Below are positions 32,050 to 64,000 of a DNA stretch of 64,000 bases, one piece after another. This DNA is from a virus (taxonomy: Duplodnaviria > Heunggongvirae > Uroviricota > Caudoviricetes), in IMG/VR virus record IMGVR_UViG_3300023214_000389; one strand, given 5' to 3'. The translations under genes were made by a program, and so were the position numbers. A model generated the notes under the pieces. The model was not told the DNA's origin. It did no database searches and saw only the letters and a list, made by a program, of their open reading frames with translations. Every line of letters starts with the position of its first letter. Within the stretch, counting starts at the first letter, position 1.

Positions 32050-35000
32050 ATGGAATCTGGGGTATTATCCTTCGACTGTAAGCAATCTCAATGCCCGGCC
32101 TACGATAGATGTGATTTGGTACCTACCCAAGTCAGGGTCATCAAAGGTACCGAACGCCCAGATGAAGTCATACTTTTCATCGGAGACTCGGTAGGAAAAC
32201 ACGAGTCTGCAAATAGTTTACCGTTTCAGGGCCGAGGCGGAGATCTACTTCGCAAAACCATACGTAAACTAAACGTTAGAAAACTGACTATAGCTTACAC
32301 CTCCATCACTCGCTATTGGCCAAGAAATGAAAATGGCGAAAGGTGTGAACCAGATCCCGAAGCTGTATCTTCCTGCATGACACACTTGCTGCGTGATGTA
32401 GAGCATCTTAAACCTAGCAAAATAGTAGCTCTAGGTTCCAAAGCACTCAAGATTCTGTTTCCCGACGCCCCAGGAATCTTGAAATCACGAGGCAAACATT
32501 TCGACCACCCGCAATTAGGTCAGATCTTTGTAACTTACGATCCTGGGTTAATGCTTAAAAAGCAAAATCTCTTCTATCAGTGGGAAGCAGATTTGCAATT
32601 AATGCTCAGTAGCGACAAACTAGTATCAAAGAGTAATAAATGGTCAAAACCATACGAATGGAGACTTCTTTCTTCTGTAGATGAAATAGAAGAATATGTG
32701 GAAGAGCTTATCAACAACAAAAAACTAAAGATAATTGCTCTAGACACAGAGACAAAAAACCTTAACGCAAGATATGACAATACACTAGGAACTCTTCAAT
32801 TCTCTGAGGACGGTAAAAGGGGCACAGTTATACCCTACCACCACCCCAAAGCGGGATGGTGGCCAGATGAGCTTAAAAGAATAGACAATGCACTGATAAA
32901 GCTTTTCACCACACCTAACCCGCCGTGGAAGTATTGGGTATTCCATAACGCTGGGTTCGATTATAGAATGATATTCAATTTTGCCTTAGGGGTCACAAAT
33001 TTCAATCGACCACTAATGGACACTGGCATGATGGCATATAGCCAGGACGAGAACAGAGGCAAGTCGGGTATAGATAAGCCCTACAGTTTAGATTCTTTGC
33101 TTAGAGACTATCTGAAAGTTGAAAAGTATGAAGACAAAGAAATTGAGCAACTAAAGAAGCAAGGAAAGTTACTAGAAATTGAAATTGATCGACTAGCTAA
33201 ATACGGTGCTAGTGATTCTGTGTACACATTTCGTCTTTTCTTCTATATTCTTGAACGAGCTAAAAGAGAGGGATATAAAGACAAGCTTCTGAAATTGTGT
33301 AAACATTGGTTTGAGCCAGTAAGTAGAATGAATTCCATTATGCAATCCAATGGGTTCTGGGTAGATGAGCACCAACTTAGGGTTCTAGGAAATAATAAAA
33401 CCTCTCCCATAGTAAAGAGAATGGAAGAGATAGAAAAAGGTTGGAGAAGTAACGCTAATGCTATTGAAGCCAATAAACGCTTAGTTGAATCGAGTCTAGG
33501 TGGTAAGATGGCTTCAGCATTTGGGGGAGGAAAAGGCTCCTGGGAATTCAGCATAGACAAAATGGAGCATAAGAGGTGCTTGTTTTTTGATGTTATGAAT
33601 CTAGAGCCTCTGGATTACGGAAAGGGCACCAGAATTCCTTTGGTAGAGGCCCCGGAAGGAAAAGAGGTAGCACCCACACCCGTAGGTAAATTGGATAGGG
33701 CTTTTCAAGATAGATATAGTGATCTAGAGGAAGTAGCTTTGTATCATGAGTGGCAGGGATTAAAGAAGCTAAAAACTTCATATGTCACTAGCATTGAATC
33801 ATTCCTAGACCCAAGAAACGGAAAAGAAGGTGCCAAGGATAGTCGCGTGCGTCCTACTTTCTGGGTAACTACAACCGACACCGGAAGATCTTCCTGCACC
33901 AACCCCAACCTACAACAGGTCCCTAGAGCAGATAACTGGGCTAAAAAAGAAATCAAAAACATGTTCGCTGCGGAGCCTGGGTGTGCTTTGATTCAGCTAG
34001 ACTTCATGACATCAGAGGTGCGTTGGTGGGGAATTCTTGCTCAGTGTCCAGCCCTAGCAAAGGCGTTTGAGAACGGAAAAATAGCTAGGGAGGATTACAA
34101 GACCCAAAGTGAGAATTACTCAAGAAAGCACCCTAAGCTGAGGTATGAGGTAGTTATGGCTGCTGAGAAGATGATTACAGATAAGTTTGAGATGAAGAAA
34201 AACAGTGAATTAAACGAACTTAAAGGAAAATTCCCTACAAAGGCACTAAAACTAGCTTACCGTTTAATGAAAAATGATATTGAGTTTTTTAATTTGATCA
34301 AGACCAAAGTCTGGTCCAGTGTTGCTGGAGACCTCCATAAAAACACCGCTAGTCAGATGTATAGTGTACCTCTGCTAGAAGTTAACAAATCCATGCGTAA
34401 CGATACAAAAGCTATTGTATTTGGTACTATGTTTGGTCGAGGACCTAAAGCTATTGCGCAACAGCTAAAAATTGCAGACATAAACGATGTACAACAAAAA
34501 ATTAGAAACTTCTTTGACCAGTTTCCAGACGCGGAAGCTTGGATGTACGATTCTGAGAAATTTGGAGAACGAAATGCTTATGTGGAGAGCCCCATAGGTC
34601 GTCGTAGACGTTTGTTAACTTTTCAGATGGGGTTTGGAGACGAAGGAGAGATTGCTAGAGCCAAAAGGATCGCAAGAAATTCTCCCATCCAGGGTATATC
34701 CTCGGATGGCGCCTTCTTAGGTGCGTCCATGTTCTCAGAGTGGCTGATCGAGGAAGGTAAATGGCATGTCCACCCGGACAAAAAATGTTGGCTCCTTCAA
34801 GATGTGGTTCACGACTCCTTGGTACTTCAGGTTCCGATTGAAGATGTGCCGGAAGCGCTACAGGCAGTCGAACCCTTTTTTTCCACCAAGCTCATGGAGC
34901 GAATGGAAAATGTATGGGACATAAATTTTAACATAGAACTCGAAGTTGATTTCGAAATAGGTCTTAAATGGGGAGATCTGGTGAGCTGGGACGGAACCAA

Positions 35001-35070
35001 TCTACACTTAGATTACCTTATGAATCAGTTACGTAAGCAAGAATCAGAAAGACAAAATAAGGCAGCTTAA
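32050..35070 (+). CDS. family A DNA polymerase with 3'-5' proofreading domain and N-terminal family-4 UDG-like domain
   Basis: UDG-like: 'C..C...C' cluster then 'FIGDSVGKHESANSLPFQGRGGDLL' (cf. GEaPG..E...G.PF.G.AG.LL); exo motifs 'LDTETKNL', 'HNAGFDY', 'YGASDSVY'; pol motifs 'TDTGRSSCTNPNLQQVP', 'LDFMTSEVRW' (motif A), 'RNDTKAIVFGTMFG' (motif B), 'VHDSLVLQVP' (motif C). Confidence 0.85.
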   Translation: MESGVLSFDCKQSQCPAYDRCDLVPTQVRVIKGTERPDEVILFIGDSVGKHESANSLPFQGRGGDLLRKTIRKLNVRKLTIAYTSITRYWPRNENGERCEPDPEAVSSCMTHLLRDVEHLKPSKIVALGSKALKILFPDAPGILKSRGKHFDHPQLGQIFVTYDPGLMLKKQNLFYQWEADLQLMLSSDKLVSKSNKWSKPYEWRLLSSVDEIEEYVEELINNKKLKIIALDTETKNLNARYDNTLGTLQFSEDGKRGTVIPYHHPKAGWWPDELKRIDNALIKLFTTPNPPWKYWVFHNAGFDYRMIFNFALGVTNFNRPLMDTGMMAYSQDENRGKSGIDKPYSLDSLLRDYLKVEKYEDKEIEQLKKQGKLLEIEIDRLAKYGASDSVYTFRLFFYILERAKREGYKDKLLKLCKHWFEPVSRMNSIMQSNGFWVDEHQLRVLGNNKTSPIVKRMEEIEKGWRSNANAIEANKRLVESSLGGKMASAFGGGKGSWEFSIDKMEHKRCLFFDVMNLEPLDYGKGTRIPLVEAPEGKEVAPTPVGKLDRAFQDRYSDLEEVALYHEWQGLKKLKTSYVTSIESFLDPRNGKEGAKDSRVRPTFWVTTTDTGRSSCTNPNLQQVPRADNWAKKEIKNMFAAEPGCALIQLDFMTSEVRWWGILAQCPALAKAFENGKIAREDYKTQSENYSRKHPKLRYEVVMAAEKMITDKFEMKKNSELNELKGKFPTKALKLAYRLMKNDIEFFNLIKTKVWSSVAGDLHKNTASQMYSVPLLEVNKSMRNDTKAIVFGTMFGRGPKAIAQQLKIADINDVQQKIRNFFDQFPDAEAWMYDSEKFGERNAYVESPIGRRRRLLTFQMGFGDEGEIARAKRIARNSPIQGISSDGAFLGASMFSEWLIEEGKWHVHPDKKCWLLQDVVHDSLVLQVPIEDVPEALQAVEPFFSTKLMERMENVWDINFNIELEVDFEIGLKWGDLVSWDGTNLHLDYLMNQLRKQESERQNKAA

Positions 35071-35237
35071 TGAGATTGTTCTGGTGGATAATCGGAACCA
35101 TAGGAACCGTTTTCCACGGTACTTTCTTCCTATTTTGTATTTTTGAAGGTATGTGGAAAGAATCCTTCCCCTTCGGCCTCTTTTTAGCTTGTTGTGTGTT
35201 CACACTCTGGAAGTATAGACTAAAGGGGACATCATGA
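35070..35237 (+). CDS. small hydrophobic (two-TM) protein, not in ORF track
   Basis: ATG overlaps polymerase stop (TAATG) and its stop overlaps next gene's ATG; translation 'MRLFWWIIGTIGTVFHGTFFLFCIFEGMWKESFPFGLFLACCVFTLWKYRLKGTS'. Confidence 0.3.
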   Translation: MRLFWWIIGTIGTVFHGTFFLFCIFEGMWKESFPFGLFLACCVFTLWKYRLKGTS

Positions 35238-35725
35238 GCAGATTCGTATATCTAGTAGGACCTATCACTGGGACCAGTTGGGTGGAAACTACTAACTGGA
35301 GAGAATATGCCAGAGATAGATTCAATCCAGGGATTGTAGGTCTTTCCCCCCTACGTGGGAAAGATTACCTTCAGCATGAAACATCCCTTGCTGACTCCTA
35401 TAAACAGCATGTTCTCAGCACCACCAGGGGCATTATGGTACGAGACGAATTCGACTGCCGCAATGCGGATGTGATTCTCGCCAATTTTTTGGGTGCAACA
35501 AGGGTTTCCATCGGATCTGTCATGGAAATCGCCTGGGCCTACATGTCCAAAAAACCAATCATTACTGTGATGGAGGCTGGAGGAGAAGACTTCACTGGTA
35601 AGAAGCTCTCTACCGGAAACTGTCACGAACACGCTATGCTGAACGAAGCTACTTCCTACAAAGTAGATACCCTAGACGCGGGAATTTTTGTAGTAAACTC
35701 AATACTGACTGGATATACCGAATGA
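35234..35725 (+). CDS. nucleoside 2-deoxyribosyltransferase-like / dNMP N-glycosidase (Rcl/DNPH1)-like protein
   Basis: 163 aa; 'VYLVGPITG' N-terminus and 'IGSVMEIAWAYMSKKPII' match Nuc_deoxyrib_tr fold signature (YLAGP...GTafElGyA.a.gKPv) including the conserved Glu. Confidence 0.5.
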   Translation: MSRFVYLVGPITGTSWVETTNWREYARDRFNPGIVGLSPLRGKDYLQHETSLADSYKQHVLSTTRGIMVRDEFDCRNADVILANFLGATRVSIGSVMEIAWAYMSKKPIITVMEAGGEDFTGKKLSTGNCHEHAMLNEATSYKVDTLDAGIFVVNSILTGYTE

Positions 35726-37292: not shown

Positions 37293-38069
37293 ATGCGCTC
37301 TTTCATTATTTTGCTGATTGCTGTAGCGGGGATGGTCCTCGCATCACCGTCTTACGCCATTTTTGATGGCGGAGATGACAACTCCACCAATAGCACCGCC
37401 CAGGCTACTGGGGTAGGCGTGGGTGTTGCTGGTTCGGACGCAGCGGCGAATGCTGGTGTGTCTAAATCTGGCAATAGTGCCAATCTCAACAAGAACAAAA
37501 ACACTGCTGTTTCTGGTTCCGGTGTTTTTGGGTCTGGTAATAGCAAGTCTACTGCTATTAACGGCCCGAACACCGCTGTTACTGGTCCATCTATTTCAGA
37601 TGCCTCTGCTTTCTCGGGGGTTGATTTCGAAGACGCCAGTTTCGGAAATAGCCGAAACGAAAACACCCTTGTAGGCAAGCAGAGTCAACATCAGGGGCAA
37701 AGTCAGAATCAAGGTCAGGTTACTGACACAGATCAGAAGAATAAGCAGGAAACCGATCTAAGTGTAGATGCATCCGATAGGTCTACCACTCTAGTGCAGG
37801 ATACTCGCGATCCTGTTGCTTCGGCTGCTCCTGTTTTTGCTTCTGCTTGTTCGGCTGGAGTTTCTGCCCAAAGCTACGGCTTTGGTGGTGCTCTAGCTAG
37901 TACCAATCCCATGTGTGATCTTGCCCTTGCGGTCGAGCTTGCTTTGAAGGTTGGTAACACCGAGCTTGCTAATGAGCTAACCGAGCGTGCGGCTTCTTTC
38001 TCTAAGAACCGCACGAACCCGGTTCGAGTATATGGCCAGTGGATTCCTTTCTTCGGACAGCTATTCTAG
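37293..38069 (+). CDS. secreted low-complexity Gly/Ser/Asn/Thr-rich protein ending in aromatic residue
   Basis: 258 aa; signal peptide 'MRSFIILLIAVAGMVLASPSYA'; many NST/NSA sequons and SG repeats; C-terminal '...GQWIPFFGQLF'; higher GC than flanks; GGAG RBS upstream. Confidence 0.45.
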   Translation: MRSFIILLIAVAGMVLASPSYAIFDGGDDNSTNSTAQATGVGVGVAGSDAAANAGVSKSGNSANLNKNKNTAVSGSGVFGSGNSKSTAINGPNTAVTGPSISDASAFSGVDFEDASFGNSRNENTLVGKQSQHQGQSQNQGQVTDTDQKNKQETDLSVDASDRSTTLVQDTRDPVASAAPVFASACSAGVSAQSYGFGGALASTNPMCDLALAVELALKVGNTELANELTERAASFSKNRTNPVRVYGQWIPFFGQLF

Positions 38070-38088
38070 TAGCTATTGAGGAATGTTG

Positions 38089-38112
38089 GGGCGGGGTTTA
38101 TCCCCGCCCCCT
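38089..38112 (+). other. GC-rich stem-loop (GGGGCGGGG-TTTAT-CCCCGCCCC) without U-tract
   Basis: perfect 9-bp inverted repeat between secreted-protein gene and OmpA-like gene; followed by AAGGAG RBS and ATG at 38132. Confidence 0.4.
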
Positions 38113-38131
38113 TGGACAAAAGGAGTCTACT

Positions 38132-38809
38132 ATGCAAAAAAATAGATCTGTTTTCTGGATTCTACTGATCGTAGCTTTCCTGCTTGCTTGGGGCGGCAAA
38201 TCTACCGCTGATACCAAGGTTCATGGTTTTAATATCCCAACGGCAGAAAGTTCCACGGATCCGCATATCGCGGTGTGCGGAGCTACCTCTTCTGGGACTA
38301 TTGAGGGGGGAGTTCAAGGGCGTCTCGCTGATCGTCGCATGTCTGGTACAGACAGCCGAACGTATGGCGTAGCGTACTGCTTTCCTGCACAAAGAGTCTC
38401 CGGTCCTAGGGAAGTATCCGTACCGGATCCGGTGACCGAAGCTATCGAAGTTGTAGAACACAAACTGGTAACCTTTTTTGATCACGACTCTGCGGATTTC
38501 TCAGATCTAAAAGCAGAGGAGGCAATTAAGGTTATTGTTGATTGGTTACGGACTACGCCAAGTGCTGGTCTCGTAGTCAAAGGGCATACGGATTCAACCG
38601 GAGATCCCGACTACAATATGGCTTTATCAGTTCAGCGTGCTGAAACTGTTAAAATGTTGTTTGTAGAAGCTGGAGTTTCACCCGATCGTATCAAATCTGT
38701 TGGATATGGTGAGACATCTCTATTAGTAAATGTACTAGGGAGAAACCAAGAAAATCGCCGAGTTGAAATCGAAGTTTTCCAGATTGAAGAAGTTCTTGTT
38801 CAAGAGTAA
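38132..38809 (+). CDS. OmpA-family peptidoglycan-binding protein with N-terminal signal/TM segment
   Basis: start moved from track's 38039 to ATG 38132 (AAGGAG 6 nt upstream; the region upstream contains a hairpin); C-terminal 'VVKGHTDSTGDPDYNMALSVQRAETVKMLF...GYGETSLLV...NRRVEIEV' is the OmpA_C signature. Confidence 0.6.
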   Translation: MQKNRSVFWILLIVAFLLAWGGKSTADTKVHGFNIPTAESSTDPHIAVCGATSSGTIEGGVQGRLADRRMSGTDSRTYGVAYCFPAQRVSGPREVSVPDPVTEAIEVVEHKLVTFFDHDSADFSDLKAEEAIKVIVDWLRTTPSAGLVVKGHTDSTGDPDYNMALSVQRAETVKMLFVEAGVSPDRIKSVGYGETSLLVNVLGRNQENRRVEIEVFQIEEVLVQE

Positions 38810-38818
38810 AGGAAGTAA

Positions 38819-38851
38819 GGGAGGGGCTTAAATGCCCCTCCCTTAGGTTTT
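38819..38851 (+). terminator. rho-independent terminator
   Basis: GGGAGGGGC-TTAAAT-GCCCCTCCC stem-loop followed by TTAGGTTTT, 10 nt after OmpA-like stop. Confidence 0.55.
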
Positions 38852-38861
38852 GGAGACTACT

Positions 38862-40007
38862 TTGAAGAAAGTGCTCGTAACATCTTGCCCATCGCTTCAC
38901 AATGTTGTTCAACTAGAACCTACCCTAGAAGCGATATATTACGAACATTTTCCTTGCGAATTAACCCTCCGAACATGGGAAGGTTACATTCCATTTTTTG
39001 AAAACCATCCTTTGATAGAAAATGTAATTACCAAAGACTCCAAAATCGATTTTATTCCCGAAGTAGAAATAATAGAAATATCAGATCTAGAATCGTGGGA
39101 CGCACCAGTAGCAACTGTAGATAAATTTGCTATATCCGCCAAAGTACAACTTCTACGTAAAACTCCAAAGATTTTCTTAAACCCTTTCCCTCCCGATAGA
39201 AACATAGTTGTCCAAGCTGATGTCCCTCACTTGTTAGATTCTTGGCATTTTCCAAATAATATAAAATCTTTCAAAGAAATCCCGATTGTAAGGCTTGAGC
39301 AACCTAAAAACAATGATTATCTAAGACTTCAATTAACGGTTTTAGCTTCTTCAGCTTTGGTGGTAGGTCCTGACAGTTGGATGACTCAAGCGGCAGCAGC
39401 ATTAGACGCCCGAGTAGTGATGGGCTTAGACTCTCCGCATAAAGAACCATTACGCGCCCCTATAAATGTTACTGTATCTAACAAAGATAAAGATAGCATT
39501 TTCAATACAGTGCAGGATGTTTTATATGAAAAACGATATCCAGATTTTCTAAACTGCGGTAACGCGGCTGAATTCATAAAAAACAAAGCTAAGATGTACA
39601 TGAAGTCAAATTTTATTGATGTGGGGTGCAGTAACTGGCCTATACCAAATGGAATTCCTGTTGATACGCACAATAGAGAAATTATAGAAAAAGCTCCTGA
39701 TAATTATTTTTCAGGAGTTTTTTCCTCACATTGCTTAGAACACATCCGAGATTGGAAGAAAGAGTTAAAATTATGGCATAGGGTTACCAGAAATGGAGGA
39801 TACATATTCATGTATCTACCTCACCCCCGTGCAGAAGTTTGGCATGCTTTTACCGGATCCTGGGTAGGTGACAACCATGTCTGGAATCCAGAACCTGTTA
39901 CTTTGGTAAAGTTCCTTAAAGAAGAATTAGGGATGAACATAATCGAATATACTTCTCGACGAGATTCTTTGTGGAGTTACTACATAATAGCGAGAAAATA
40001 TGACTAG
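38862..40007 (+). CDS. GT9 heptosyltransferase-like domain fused to class I SAM-dependent methyltransferase-like domain
   Basis: GT9 N-terminal motif 'KVLVTSCPSLHNVVQLEPTLEAIYYEHFPCEL' and 'LVVGPDSWMTQAAAALDARVVMGL' (cf. DSGpmHlAaAlg.P.v.lfG); MTase motifs 'IDVGCSNWP' and 'SSHCLEHIRDWKKELKLWHRVTRNGGYIF'; start chosen at TTG 38862 (GGAG 6 nt upstream) because track start 38850 lies in the terminator T-tract; GTG 38871 also possible. Confidence 0.5.
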   Translation: MKKVLVTSCPSLHNVVQLEPTLEAIYYEHFPCELTLRTWEGYIPFFENHPLIENVITKDSKIDFIPEVEIIEISDLESWDAPVATVDKFAISAKVQLLRKTPKIFLNPFPPDRNIVVQADVPHLLDSWHFPNNIKSFKEIPIVRLEQPKNNDYLRLQLTVLASSALVVGPDSWMTQAAAALDARVVMGLDSPHKEPLRAPINVTVSNKDKDSIFNTVQDVLYEKRYPDFLNCGNAAEFIKNKAKMYMKSNFIDVGCSNWPIPNGIPVDTHNREIIEKAPDNYFSGVFSSHCLEHIRDWKKELKLWHRVTRNGGYIFMYLPHPRAEVWHAFTGSWVGDNHVWNPEPVTLVKFLKEELGMNIIEYTSRRDSLWSYYIIARKYD

Positions 40008-40070
40008 AAATGGGTCGTTGCTGCTATTCCATAGAGGGACGAAACTTACAAGAAGCAGTGGAATTTTAAT

Positions 40071-40481
40071 ATGATGAAGAAAACCGATTCTGGGCCTTTG
40101 ATAGAGACTGAGGCTTCTCCTGAGAAGAAACTGGAAGCTACTTCCGAAGAACAGGTTGATACCAGCGCGTGGGATAACATCATCGAGCTTATCCTAAATC
40201 TGGACCCTGATAAGTACGGTAAGCCTTTCTCCGATGTTGAGCTTCAGAAGATGTGTGAGATCGTCTCTGCGGGCAGGGGGAAATTTCCTAAGAAAGTCAT
40301 CCCCTATGTGGAGCTTATGCGCAAGTTCCTTTTCGCAAACTATCAGCTCATCGCTTTGGCCGCTTTAGCTCACAAAACAGCCCAGGATAAATCCAAAGAA
40401 GAGAAACAGCTTGTCAAGCCGGCTAACTTCTCTGACCTGGGGAAGATAGAAGCCGAGAAGCTGAAGAATCAAGGTAGCTGA
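40071..40481 (+). CDS. small acidic hypothetical protein
   Basis: 136 aa, between the two GT9-like paralogs; ATGATGA overlap with next gene. Confidence 0.3.
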   Translation: MMKKTDSGPLIETEASPEKKLEATSEEQVDTSAWDNIIELILNLDPDKYGKPFSDVELQKMCEIVSAGRGKFPKKVIPYVELMRKFLFANYQLIALAALAHKTAQDKSKEEKQLVKPANFSDLGKIEAEKLKNQGS

Positions 40482-41617
40482 TGATGAACGTCACGAAGGT
40501 GCTAGTAACGAGATACGGCGGTGCCGGTGACATGATTATGATGGAACCGGTTTTAGAGGCATTGTACTACAAGTTCACGCCCGCAGAGATCCATCTTCGC
40601 ACGCATTTCCACTACACAGATCTTCATGAGTTCCACCCCCTGATTCAAAATATTGTTCCGGGTGTTCTAACAGCCAATCCGCAAGAGATGGCCAAAGGCA
40701 TTCTAAGCGACGAGAAGAAGCCTCAAGGGTTCGACTATTTCTATAACACAACCGGTAGCGTGGAAATGAACCGAGGCATACATGGTATAGATAGTTTTGC
40801 CTTTGCGTGCAGCGCAATCCCGTTCCGTAGAACCCCAGTGATGTATCTAGACCCCTCCGTCCCCGTAGAGTCCAGAGACATCGTGATCCATACCCCCAAA
40901 AAGACAGACAAGAGCCCACGAAACAACGACTTCAGAACGTTCGGAGCGTCGGCTGTGACCAAGTTTTTAGACCAGCAAGGTATAAAGTATGATTCTATTG
41001 TCGATATTGGGTCTGAACCAGAGACAGAAGACGCTCTACAAAATTTCGCCAGAACAATTGCCGGAGCCAAGCTGTTCATAGGCCCAGATTCGGCCGGGGC
41101 TCACATCGCCTCGGCGCTCAGCGTGCCAAGAATTGTAGCCGCATACACGGATTATTTCCCCGCAGGGATTAGAGCGTACCCAAACACTACAATCCCTGTT
41201 CGAGACAACAACATTGATGGCTTACTGAGTGCCGTTGAAACAGCCTACACAAGCCTACACAAGCCTCTACCAGATCCTCTAGTATCCCTGCTCGTAAAAT
41301 CACAGAAGTACGCTTACGGGAGAACCTGCGGCCCCCAGGATAAGGCAAATCAGTCGGGTTACGATCTGATCCAAAGGCTCCAAATAACTTTTGAAGAAAA
41401 CTGGAGACATGAGGTTTTTGATTTGATGGAAAGATTGTCCCCTAGGGGAATATTGTACTTGTACGAGAAGCACCCTAGGTTCGGTGGGACAGAAGATCCC
41501 ATAATGATCGCTAAATATCTAATCCAAACTTGTGGAATGGAAATTGTGGAATATTCTGCCACAGCAGACGAATATGGCCATTTTTTCGTCGAAGCTAGAA
41601 AGCTGGATCGTTCTTGA
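40481..41617 (+). CDS. GT9 heptosyltransferase-like protein (paralog of 38862..40007) with degenerate methyltransferase-like C-terminus
   Basis: 'KVLVTRYGGAGDMIMMEPVLEALYYKFTPAEIHL' and 'LFIGPDSAGAHIASALSVPRIVAAY' GT9 motifs; C-terminus 'RGILYLYEKHP...IVEYSATADEYGHFFVEARKLD' aligns with paralog C-terminus. Confidence 0.5.
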   Translation: MMNVTKVLVTRYGGAGDMIMMEPVLEALYYKFTPAEIHLRTHFHYTDLHEFHPLIQNIVPGVLTANPQEMAKGILSDEKKPQGFDYFYNTTGSVEMNRGIHGIDSFAFACSAIPFRRTPVMYLDPSVPVESRDIVIHTPKKTDKSPRNNDFRTFGASAVTKFLDQQGIKYDSIVDIGSEPETEDALQNFARTIAGAKLFIGPDSAGAHIASALSVPRIVAAYTDYFPAGIRAYPNTTIPVRDNNIDGLLSAVETAYTSLHKPLPDPLVSLLVKSQKYAYGRTCGPQDKANQSGYDLIQRLQITFEENWRHEVFDLMERLSPRGILYLYEKHPRFGGTEDPIMIAKYLIQTCGMEIVEYSATADEYGHFFVEARKLDRS

Positions 41618-41652: not shown

Positions 41653-41895
41653 TTGGAAACTGAATTAACTGGACCTTTTTCTAAATCTCGACAATGGCTT
41701 TTGAATTACCTATCAACAGCTAAATTTAGAAATGAAATTATACAAGGGTCATTAAAAGCTGATTGGTCTGAGGTGGAGCACGCACGTGCCGCCTATTTAC
41801 TGGGATGTCTTTGGGGGCGTTTGAGACAAGTAGATTCTTCCCTTGAGAATGCTACTGAATATGGAGCATTAGTAATAGAGGAGCTAAATGAATAA
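41653..41895 (+). CDS. hypothetical protein
   Basis: 80 aa, TTG start per ORF track; stop overlaps next ATG. Confidence 0.25.
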   Translation: METELTGPFSKSRQWLLNYLSTAKFRNEIIQGSLKADWSEVEHARAAYLLGCLWGRLRQVDSSLENATEYGALVIEELNE

Positions 41896-42527
41896 TGCAA
41901 GACTTCATAGTTTTAGACAATTGGCTTCCAATAGGGCAAGCAGAGGAAATTGCATCCAAAATTAGCAGAATACAAAATTGGGATGTTAGAATATGTGACA
42001 AAGACGGGGGCCCAAGAGTTGTAAAAAATGAGAGTCTCAAAAGTTTGGGAATAACAGCAGAGGAGTATGCTAAAGACTATCCAGAAAGTTTGGCCCAATT
42101 AGCCCGTGGCGGAACAATGGCTTACTTGTTCTTTGTCAAACATCTTTCTGAATTTGACCCTATCCTTCTAAATTGGTTTAATACAGAATTCTTGTCTACG
42201 GCTAATATGATTACTGAACAAGAGAATAACTATACAGAAGAGCCCCAGGTAACTATGTATTCATCTGGGTGCTTTCTTGGGCAACATAGTGATGGAGTCG
42301 GCTCTAGGCAGGTTGCCTTTATTGCAAATTTCACACGCAATTGGCAACCTGATTTTGGTGGGTGTCTTACTATTCTTACACAAGGCAAGTGGCAGGTAAT
42401 ACCTCCAAAATTCAATTCGATTGTTTTTATGAATGTTAGATCAGCAAATTGTCACTATGTTAGTCAAGTTTCGAGCTGGGTACAAAACAACAGAACCGCC
42501 ATTACAGGGTGGATAGGTAGAAGATAA
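41895..42527 (+). CDS. 2OG-Fe(II) oxygenase, prolyl 4-hydroxylase-like (2OG-FeII_Oxy_3-type)
   Basis: 210 aa; 'FLGQHSDGVG' (HxD), 'NWQPDFGGCLTIL' and C-terminal 'CHYVSQVS...NRTAITGWI' (H...R.S/TGW) match P4H-like dioxygenase core. Confidence 0.55.
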   Translation: MQDFIVLDNWLPIGQAEEIASKISRIQNWDVRICDKDGGPRVVKNESLKSLGITAEEYAKDYPESLAQLARGGTMAYLFFVKHLSEFDPILLNWFNTEFLSTANMITEQENNYTEEPQVTMYSSGCFLGQHSDGVGSRQVAFIANFTRNWQPDFGGCLTILTQGKWQVIPPKFNSIVFMNVRSANCHYVSQVSSWVQNNRTAITGWIGRR

Positions 42528-47504: not shown

Positions 47505-47822
47505 ATGTTAGAAAGAGTTACTGTAGCTGGATTTGCTCTGATTCTTTTTCTTTCTGGATGTGCTTCCCCGTTGGAATGCTACAAAATTGAATCAGCAGAT
47601 ACATGGGTATCTGGTGGGCCCCAAAGTTGGGAATCTGATTCAGAGTCCAATAACCGACGAGGAAGAACAACAGATCAAACTAGGTCTAATGGGGATGGTT
47701 GGAGTGTTGACGTTGGCTTGAACTTACATTGGGGTGCAAATTCCTGTGACTGGGTTTATGTAGATGAAGAAAAAAGCCCACCTCCGGGAAACCAGAAGCC
47801 TGGGAGATCTACTCCAGATTAG
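47505..47822 (+). CDS. small lipoprotein
   Basis: 105 aa; signal peptide with lipobox 'LFLSGC'; GGAG RBS upstream. Confidence 0.5.
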   Translation: MLERVTVAGFALILFLSGCASPLECYKIESADTWVSGGPQSWESDSESNNRRGRTTDQTRSNGDGWSVDVGLNLHWGANSCDWVYVDEEKSPPPGNQKPGRSTPD

Positions 47823-48384
47823 GAATACCTTTGGATCCTATAGACCCATCTCCTACGATAGATATTACTTGAGTTGGGGCAAAAGTAGTTAATCTAGCAA
47901 TTTCAACATTTACTCCAAAATTCTTTACAGCATTTTGAACTTCTCTCGTCAATCTGTTGTCTATTTTTGCCCTGCCTTCATTGATATCTTGAACTGTCTC
48001 TGCTAACACTGCTTTCCTGATTCCTGTTTGCGCGGCCTCAGACATAGAATCAGCAGCGTCATAGTTTTCAACCATAAACATATACAAATCAGTAATTGAA
48101 TATATTACAACTCCGCCCACAACAACGTTAGTGTTCCCATTAGGCGACGTATCATCTTTACAAACCACTGTTTGTCTGGGAAGCTCCATGACTTGTCTTA
48201 CGACCGGGTATATCTCTAGCTGCGTTGTTATAGGCCAATAGACATGAATTCCCGGCTCAACTACCTTAGCTTTATCTCTTACGAATTTTATGGCCTTTTC
48301 TGTGGCTCTAACATGAAATATTTGCGGAATCCAATTAGCAAACCACGTTACTAGTTCTCCTATCCACCCAAGAGCTGCATCCAT
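47809..48384 (-). CDS. SPFH / band-7 (stomatin-prohibitin-like) membrane protein
   Basis: 191 aa; hydrophobic N-terminus then '...EPGIHVYWPITTQLEIYPVVRQ...TSPNGNTNVVVGGVVIYSITDLYMFMVENYD...EAAQTGIRKAVLAETVQDINEGRAKI...GVNVEIARLTTF' consistent with SPFH core. Confidence 0.5.
   Translation of the reverse strand: MDAALGWIGELVTWFANWIPQIFHVRATEKAIKFVRDKAKVVEPGIHVYWPITTQLEIYPVVRQVMELPRQTVVCKDDTSPNGNTNVVVGGVVIYSITDLYMFMVENYDAADSMSEAAQTGIRKAVLAETVQDINEGRAKIDNRLTREVQNAVKNFGVNVEIARLTTFAPTQVISIVGDGSIGSKGIPNLE

Positions 48385-62161: not shown

Positions 62162-64000
<1,839 letters not shown>

Follow-up and report, generated by a model that had tools for sequence, protein, structure and literature searches.

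A compact GT9-methyltransferase module represented by two paralogs with apparently reciprocal degeneration in an uncultured myophage clade

The block analyzed here consists of five plus-strand open reading frames (ORFs), designated A to E, at positions 37293-41617 of a 64-kb stretch of viral DNA (IMG/VR record IMGVR_UViG_3300023214_000389). This stretch, referred to below as the window, is part of a 210-kb contig of an uncultured myophage. All five ORFs lie where an original prediction, made from the sequence alone, had placed them. A and B encode secreted proteins, D is a small protein, and C and E are full-length paralogs of each other (BLASTP E=7e-25, 23% identity; hhalign of the two families E=9e-48). 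Our main finding concerns C and E, which are predicted to be compact glycosyltransferase family 9 (GT9)-methyltransferase fusions that have each conserved the domain that appears to have decayed in the other.

Domain architecture and paralogy of C and E

The ORF of C spans 38850-40007 (385 aa), but its likeliest start is the TTG at 38862, which is favored by a ribosome-binding site (GGAG at 38852) and by the resulting N-terminus MKKVLVT, which is that of the family. In the 385-aa numbering, C comprises a compact GT9-like domain (approximately aa 1-225) and a class-I S-adenosylmethionine (SAM) methyltransferase domain (approximately aa 226-385). E (40481-41617) comprises a compact GT9 domain with intact motifs (aa 1-250) and a degenerate, truncated methyltransferase-like domain (aa 251-378). 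This is the architecture that had been claimed for the two proteins, and it was borne out by sequence, profile and fold. As anticipated, Pfam searches detected Methyltransf_11 in C, Glyco_transf_9 in E and OmpA in B, all above the gathering score. In C, Methyltransf_11 (PF08241) scored 28.0 bits against a cut-off of 21.2, over the distal half of the model only, and Glyco_transf_9 was not matched at E<=1. In E, Glyco_transf_9 (PF01075) scored just above its cut-off (24.1 against 22 bits) in a stretch of 50 residues only (186-235), and no Pfam methyltransferase model was matched, the region of motif I being unconserved. Precomputed PF01075 matches are found in most members of the E family, but not in most members of the C family. 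In tblastn searches against cultured phages E had no match, and C matched through its methyltransferase domain only, namely to cyanophage genes annotated as 'methyltransferase type 11'.

AlphaFold models built on the family alignments were confident for both proteins (predicted local distance difference test (pLDDT) 87.3 and predicted template-modeling score (pTM) 0.88 for C; pLDDT 87.8 and pTM 0.88 for E). In both models a GT-B fold superimposes on structures of the WaaC/WaaF type and a Rossmann-like methyltransferase fold is also present, and C and E are thus each modeled as a GT9 fold joined to a class-I methyltransferase fold. The GT9 domain of the phage proteins is unusually short (approximately 225-250 aa against approximately 320-350 aa in cellular enzymes), as about 100 aa are absent between two conserved blocks.

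The distribution of conserved residues differs between the two families. In the E family, the motifs GGAGD, HTPK...PRNxDFR and GPDSxGxH are invariant, as are D17, K140, R147 and D203; both GPDSxGxH and D203 align to the region of WaaC D261. Motif I of the methyltransferase (DVGxS) and the motif FSSHCLEH are absent from E, which agrees with the earlier description of its methyltransferase copy as degenerate. In the C family, conversely, there is little or no variation at D257, G259 and S261 (DVGCS) and at the acidic D272, the motifs FSSHCLEH and LPHP are invariant, and HTPK/PRNxDFR is missing. At position 18 of C, 28/31 relatives have Asp and the window has Asn; D175 is present in the window. 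The residues of C and E that we take to be equivalent to WaaC Asp13 and Lys192 were assigned from motif position, and not from a residue-level structural alignment. The same division is reflected in overall conservation. Within the C family (52 clusters at 90% identity, nearly all of approximately 380 aa), the mean pairwise identity is 0.46 in the GT9 domain and 0.70 in the methyltransferase domain; within the E family (40 clusters) the corresponding values are 0.71 and 0.45. Judged from these sequences, degeneration appears to have been reciprocal, C having a conserved methyltransferase and an eroded GT9 domain and E being its mirror image.

Single-copy fusions of approximately 400 aa occur in other jumbo-phage contigs, including L008-L013 (up to 313 kb), P0052, P0114 and others. 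Those of L008-L013 and P0052 retain both the GT9 and the methyltransferase motif sets. A hidden Markov model (HMM) of the N-terminal domain of the single-copy fusions matched E more strongly (1e-30 to 1e-35) than C (1e-14 to 1e-20). The simplest history suggested by these comparisons would be the duplication of a bifunctional enzyme, followed by subfunctionalization. What is new here is a compact GT9-methyltransferase module that is restricted to phages, and its splitting into two reciprocally half-degenerate paralogs.

The methyltransferase family outside this phage

We surveyed a library of 1.84 billion representative proteins for fusions of the same methyltransferase domain and found it joined to GT2, GT4/GT1, full-size GT9 and FkbM domains in proteins of 600-1700 aa. 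One of these, P0173 (1205 aa; L091 1173-4790), unites a compact GT9-methyltransferase, an FkbM and a GT2 domain in a single chain; the same parts are separate neighboring genes in the 313-kb jumbo phage L008. Another, P0161 (1707 aa; L090 2326-7449), combines the methyltransferase with GT9 and GT2 domains and adjoins genes for an SDR protein, a hexapeptide acyltransferase and a PIG-L deacetylase. The L008 cluster also includes a TPR-bearing GT2-methyltransferase protein, with genes for UvrD and a deoxynucleoside monophosphate (dNMP) kinase nearby. As a side observation, the UvrD helicase adjoining the single-copy GT9-methyltransferase of L008 (4223-6961) has an intein-splicing signature, and the cluster is flanked by GIY-YIG/NUMOD3 endonucleases.

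Relatives of the methyltransferase were found in 488 viral contigs, chiefly as stand-alone proteins of approximately 160 aa, and genes for O-methyltransferases are also among their neighbors. In a viral family of 14 loci, the stand-alone methyltransferase lies within a virion module, with head-tail adaptor genes on one side and neck/tail-terminator genes on the other. In L015 (1696-4202) and 13 similar siphophage loci, the small methyltransferase is part of an insert of four to five genes, together with a weakly MptE/Maf-like gene and members of two families without annotation (265 and 225 aa), and extra methyltransferases flank it in related loci. We regard this insert as a candidate virion-decoration cassette with two uncharacterized protein families. 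The idea that the 265-aa and 225-aa neighbors could themselves be compact GT9 domains was examined with three HMMs and rejected. In another viral family, the methyltransferase belongs to a cluster with NDP-sugar dehydratase/epimerases, a DegT aminotransferase, FkbM and GT10- and GT8-like genes.

In a survey of GTDB genomes, 265 bacterial and archaeal loci matched the methyltransferase domain alone, with 35-45% identity to that of C, and no full-length match to C was present among the best 80 of the 265 loci, which were kept for analysis. Glycosyltransferases are prominent among the genes flanking the methyltransferase in these genomes: GT9 (38/112), GT2 (19/112) and GT1/4 (8/112), besides Wzt-type ABC transporters (6/112) and FkbM (4/112). 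This constitutes a strong link between the methyltransferase family and glycosyltransferases, GT9 especially, that is independent of the phage fusion, and a sugar or glycan would therefore be the most economical methyl acceptor. On this basis, a widespread family of small phage methyltransferases can be assigned a probable role in glycan modification. The original prediction had suggested, in general terms, that the phage carries a glycosylation/methylation system, and the domain fusions and gene neighborhoods described here strengthen that suggestion.

Genomic setting of the block and the variable slot occupied by A and B

The window had no match in a DNA similarity search against 50,697 phage records, and its PolA (32050-35070), which has an N-terminal uracil-DNA-glycosylase (UDG)-like domain, is only 25-28% identical to the PolA proteins of cultured jumbo phages infecting the Proteobacteria Erwinia and Pseudomonas. 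The layout of UDG, exonuclease and polymerase follows from Pfam marks on the L001 and L003 homologs. Baseplate and tail-fiber genes are located upstream of the block, and no lysogeny genes were seen within the window; all this gives the impression of a jumbo myophage with a lytic life cycle. Relatives with genomes of 184-267 kb have the common gene order PolA(UDG-exo-pol)-[NDT]-ThyX-DUF1508-p143-[slot]-C-(small ORFs)-D-E-p80-[2OG oxygenase]-VWA-PIF1. In the window, the gene between PolA and ThyX (35234-35725; GC3, the GC content at third codon positions, z 2.1) encodes a protein that resembles nucleoside 2-deoxyribosyltransferases (NDT) at a score below the gathering threshold (25.3 against 28.8 bits). 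The ThyX of the 184-kb relative L002 (5857-7656) is interrupted by an intein that carries an HNH/NUMOD4 homing endonuclease.

C, D and E occur together and in the same order in L001, L002, L005 and L085. Because of this synteny across the clade, C-D-E is a conserved core block, located between PolA/ThyX and the PIF1 helicase, and not the accessory cassette that had been proposed; only A and B are variable. A mobile cassette was likewise rejected: searches of the block found no tRNA, no Rfam match and no significant repeats, and there are no notable direct or inverted repeats at its flanks. Minus-strand ORFs within the block are all short, and a promoter scan was uninformative (9 sites against 10 expected).

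The block had also been described as GC-richer than its surroundings. Its GC content of 0.453 is indeed the highest among all 4.3-kb blocks of the window (mean 0.418, standard deviation 0.018), but the block is heterogeneous: A, B, D and E have values of 0.50, 0.47, 0.47 and 0.48, whereas C (0.38) is below average. Likewise, GC3 is raised in D (0.57) and E (0.52) compared to the window mean of 0.33 (z 3.0-3.9), whereas C is typical (0.32). Since the values for D and E match the genome-wide GC3 of the higher-GC relatives L001, L002 and L005 (0.50-0.58), an allelic exchange within the clade is hinted at, and D-E may be a recent acquisition from a phage of this clade with higher GC rather than from a foreign source.

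The slot 5' of C contains A and B in the window, L002 and L085-L089, gyrB in L001 and L006, and nothing in L005. A (37293-38069) has a signal peptide, a hypervariable linker rich in Gly, Asn, Ser, Gln and Ala, and a conserved C-terminal domain of approximately 90 aa with two invariant Cys residues and an aromatic C-terminus; the protein is secreted, and its disulfide-type C-terminal domain is borne by a disordered tether. The original prediction had depicted A as made almost entirely of Gly, Ser, Asn and Thr with many N-x-S/T sequons. In fact, these four residues account for 38% of A, Ala is the most frequent residue, and there are only three sequons (0-5 in the homologs, at positions that are not conserved). 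The linker varies strongly in length and composition among the homologs. These comprise only 21 metagenomic clusters, and no match to A was found in Pfam, PHROGs, NCBIfam or PDB, or by tblastn against cultured phages. B (ORF 38039-38809, likeliest start ATG at 38132) has a signal peptide and, as predicted, an OmpA_C peptidoglycan-binding domain (PF00691; 61.5 bits against a cut-off of 27.2, E=1e-16, residues 146-230 of the 256-aa ORF). NCBIfam matches of B are to YiaD/Pal/OmpA-like families, and as all of these score below the equivalog cut-offs no specific orthology can be assigned. A and B are adjacent in L002 and L085-L089, always in the one slot 5' of C, and neither occurs without the other; together they form a tight, variable two-gene insert that is restricted to this phage clade. 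Seven nucleotides 3' of the B stop codon lies a hairpin (38816-38845), formed by a perfect 12-bp GC-rich palindrome (TAAGGGAGGGGC...GCCCCTCCCTTA) that is followed by a T-run (GGTTTTGG). This hairpin, which overlaps the TTG at 38850 that automated calling had given as the start of C, is likely an intrinsic terminator that closes the A-B unit, as predicted from its sequence.

These observations bear on the model of the original prediction, according to which A is a dedicated substrate that is heptosylated and methylated in the cytoplasm, in the way that AIDA-I and TibA are modified by Aah and TibC, and is then exported and held by B. L001 and L005 keep C, D and E without A-B, L006 keeps C without A-B, and no homolog of A is recorded on the 187-, 266-, 194- and 129-kb contigs that bear homologs of C or E. 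As A and B are thus absent from several relatives that retain C-D-E, A is not an obligate substrate. Such conservation in the absence of a Ser-rich partner was part of what the original prediction had itself named as a refutation. Furthermore, the hypervariable linker contains only 12-20% Ser plus Thr, the terminator-like hairpin separates B from C, A has no Pfam match that would make it an autotransporter, and neither a TibC-specific similarity nor an invariant Cys is present in E. The logic of substrate, anchor and glycosyltransferases in this order is therefore not supported, and we consider the model very improbable. A and B are tied to C and E by adjacency alone. They would constitute a separate periplasmic, peptidoglycan-anchored module that merely fills the variable slot 5' of C, and a role in envelope stabilization or exclusion is a guess.

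D (40071-40481, 136 aa) is conserved and separates C from E in every relative that was examined. It is 40-57% identical by BLASTP to the proteins encoded at this position in L001, L002 and L005. It had been called acidic, but it has a pI of 5.9 and nearly equal numbers of acidic (22 Asp plus Glu) and basic (21 Lys plus Arg) residues; no match was found in Pfam, PHROGs, NCBIfam or PDB sequences. The p80 gene (41653-41895, plus strand, 80 aa) is found 3' of E in relatives as well, either adjoining it or within approximately 700 nt. No match to p80 was obtained in PHROGs, NCBIfam or PDB sequences, and it is a possible accessory factor. Next to it lies a 2-oxoglutarate (2OG)-Fe(II) oxygenase gene (41895-42527, plus strand; PF13661/PF13640). 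This oxygenase is present 3' of E in three genomes with A-B (the window, L002 and L085) and missing from L001 and L005, which are without A-B, but this co-occurrence may reflect mere shared ancestry. Further away, the window encodes, both on the minus strand, an SPFH/Band-7 domain protein (47809-48384) and a collagen triple-helix repeat protein (62162-63853; PF01391, E=2e-20), which is a possible fiber and a conceivable glycosylation target. A hydroxylase beside a glycosyltransferase in a phage with collagen repeats recalls the hydroxylysine glycosylation of Mimivirus.

The location of C and E in a replication/nucleotide module, between the DNA polymerase/ThyX and helicase genes, raises the question whether DNA could be the acceptor. 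E would then glycosylate a hydroxymethylated base, and C would methylate the sugar. The neighboring 2OG-Fe(II) oxygenase and the proximity of the L008 homolog to the UvrD and dNMP kinase genes would fit such a hypermodification, and phage GT-B enzymes able to put heptose on 5-hydroxymethylcytosine have been described (bioRxiv 10.1101/2023.12.21.572611). However, the glycosyltransferases known to act on DNA resemble T4 beta-GT or are of the GT-A type, rather than GT9, and the window revealed neither a hydroxymethylase nor a TET/JBP-type enzyme. The neighboring oxygenase belongs to the PF13640/PF13661 type and is missing from L001 and L005, which keep C-D-E. In addition, the methyltransferase family is consistently associated with polysaccharide and glycan genes when cellular, and in phages with modules for virions or NDP-sugars. 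Modification of DNA is accordingly very improbable in our view.

Proposed mechanism, acceptor and comparison with known systems

We propose that a bifunctional GT9-methyltransferase was duplicated and that C and E, its descendants, make up a single two-part enzyme system, in which E glycosylates and C O-methylates, with a virion protein as the acceptor. We give this proposal about an even chance of being correct; domain activity, donor, sugar methylation, complex formation and acceptor are all inferred. E would be the retained glycosyltransferase and, as it is of the GT9 type, its default donor is predicted to be ADP-heptose from a Gram-negative host; its methyltransferase domain would have decayed to a structural remnant. 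C would be the retained SAM-dependent methyltransferase, and its GT9 domain would have drifted, the nucleotide-phosphate motif being gone and, in this phage, an Asn replacing the catalytic-type Asp. After transfer of a sugar to the acceptor by E, C would O-methylate that sugar. Because each paralog retains the domain that is presumed dead in it, the two may still cooperate physically, and they probably form a heteromeric complex, possibly with D and p80. A more specific version, namely a heteromer of reciprocal half-pseudoenzymes (an active GT9 with a dead methyltransferase, and a drifted GT9 with an active methyltransferase) that installs O-methylated heptose on virion proteins, is put forward tentatively and is rather unlikely to hold in full.

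As to the acceptor, we weakly favor a phage-made virion protein, slightly ahead of a host envelope glycan, and place both well ahead of A and DNA. For a virion protein speak the stand-alone methyltransferase homologs in virion modules of other phages, the TPR-bearing GT2-methyltransferase in the L008 cluster, and the viral precedents of PBCV-1 A064R and the mycobacteriophages that are compared below. Moreover, since approximately 100 aa of the cellular GT9 enzymes are absent, the acceptor site of the phage GT9 domain should differ from that of enzymes acting on the lipopolysaccharide (LPS) core. Several points weigh against our proposal. In the window, C and E have genes for replication and nucleotide metabolism as their surroundings and are outside any structural module, and no sugar-nucleotide biosynthesis genes were found in the subset of larger window ORFs that was scanned. 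The C-family GT9 domain keeps the equivalent of D175 in 31/32 members and D18 in most and, judged from these residues, may be active with another specificity instead of dead. Lastly, to our knowledge all characterized GT9 enzymes except Aah and TibC act on LPS, and the bacterial methyltransferase-GT9 pairs sit in polysaccharide or O-antigen-type clusters, so that a glycolipid acceptor is favored as much as a protein.

It is therefore possible, though on balance not probable, that the same enzyme pair acts on a host envelope glycan, such as the LPS core, O-antigen or another lipid-linked polysaccharide, and that the remodeled surface would, for example, block superinfection or keep progeny from sticking to debris. 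This would be the canonical role of GT9, the bacterial pairs likewise occur among polysaccharide genes, and A-B, as an envelope module, would fit. On the other hand, the phage is seemingly a lytic jumbo myophage whose window showed no lysogeny genes, its compact GT9 domain is missing about 100 aa that the LPS enzymes have, A-B is dispensable for the clade, and the stand-alone homologs of the methyltransferase in other phages reside in virion modules.

Should virion proteins indeed be decorated, this would bear on host range, immune recognition and phage engineering, and methyl-heptose on virion proteins would mean that a viral protein is glycosylated by a GT9-type enzyme for the first time on record. 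Remodeling of host LPS would instead amount to a receptor-editing function of large lytic phages. If C and E form an obligate pair, they would provide a clean natural case of a bifunctional enzyme that has been subfunctionalized. The compact GT9-methyltransferase module exists in some jumbo phages as one gene that is bifunctional, as judged from its motifs, and as an apparently reciprocally degenerated pair in another clade, and C and E thereby offer a test case for the splitting of bifunctional enzymes into complexes that contain pseudoenzymes.

The enzymes with which giant viruses of eukaryotes build glycans have been studied well, and the few phage cases are recent. Compared to WaaC, WaaF and other GT9 enzymes of known structure (PDB 2h1f, 1psw and 3tov; approximately 320-350 aa), the phage GT9 domain is shorter (approximately 225-250 aa) and fused to a methyltransferase. 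A Cys-coordinated iron site, together with a dodecameric assembly, is a defining feature of the BAHT family, to which the autotransporter heptosyltransferases Aah and TibC belong; the E family has no invariant Cys with which to form such a site. The kinship with Aah and TibC that had been suggested for C and E was not supported by structure comparison either, as the TibC structure (PDB 4rap) scores below LPS-type GT9 structures against the phage models and is thus no closer to them. Aah and TibC are moreover encoded next to their cognate autotransporter, whereas no autotransporter adjoins C and E, the neighbor A having no Pfam domain and being dispensable in the clade. The bacterial pairs found in Nitrospira, Hydrogenedentota, Opitutaceae, Acidobacteriota and other metagenome-assembled genomes do place the same methyltransferase family beside GT9, but as separate genes with a full-size GT9, and they are themselves uncharacterized. 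For the favored acceptor, the mycobacteriophage glycosyltransferases that decorate virion proteins (Freeman et al. 2023, as cited in PMC12582341) offer a precedent by analogy only: the host is Gram-positive-like, the glycosyltransferases belong to other families, and no GT9-methyltransferase fusion is reported for them. The closest functional analogy is A064R of the chlorovirus PBCV-1, which has two glycosyltransferase domains and a methyltransferase domain, and which adds a sugar to the capsid N-glycan and then O-methylates it (PMC7826918). Like the system proposed here, A064R is a multidomain viral enzyme that combines sugar addition with O-methylation. It differs in that its glycosyltransferase domains are rhamnosyltransferases and not GT9, that the virus has a eukaryotic host, and that all domains are active within one polypeptide, whereas in the present phage clade the two activities would be distributed over two degenerated paralogs.

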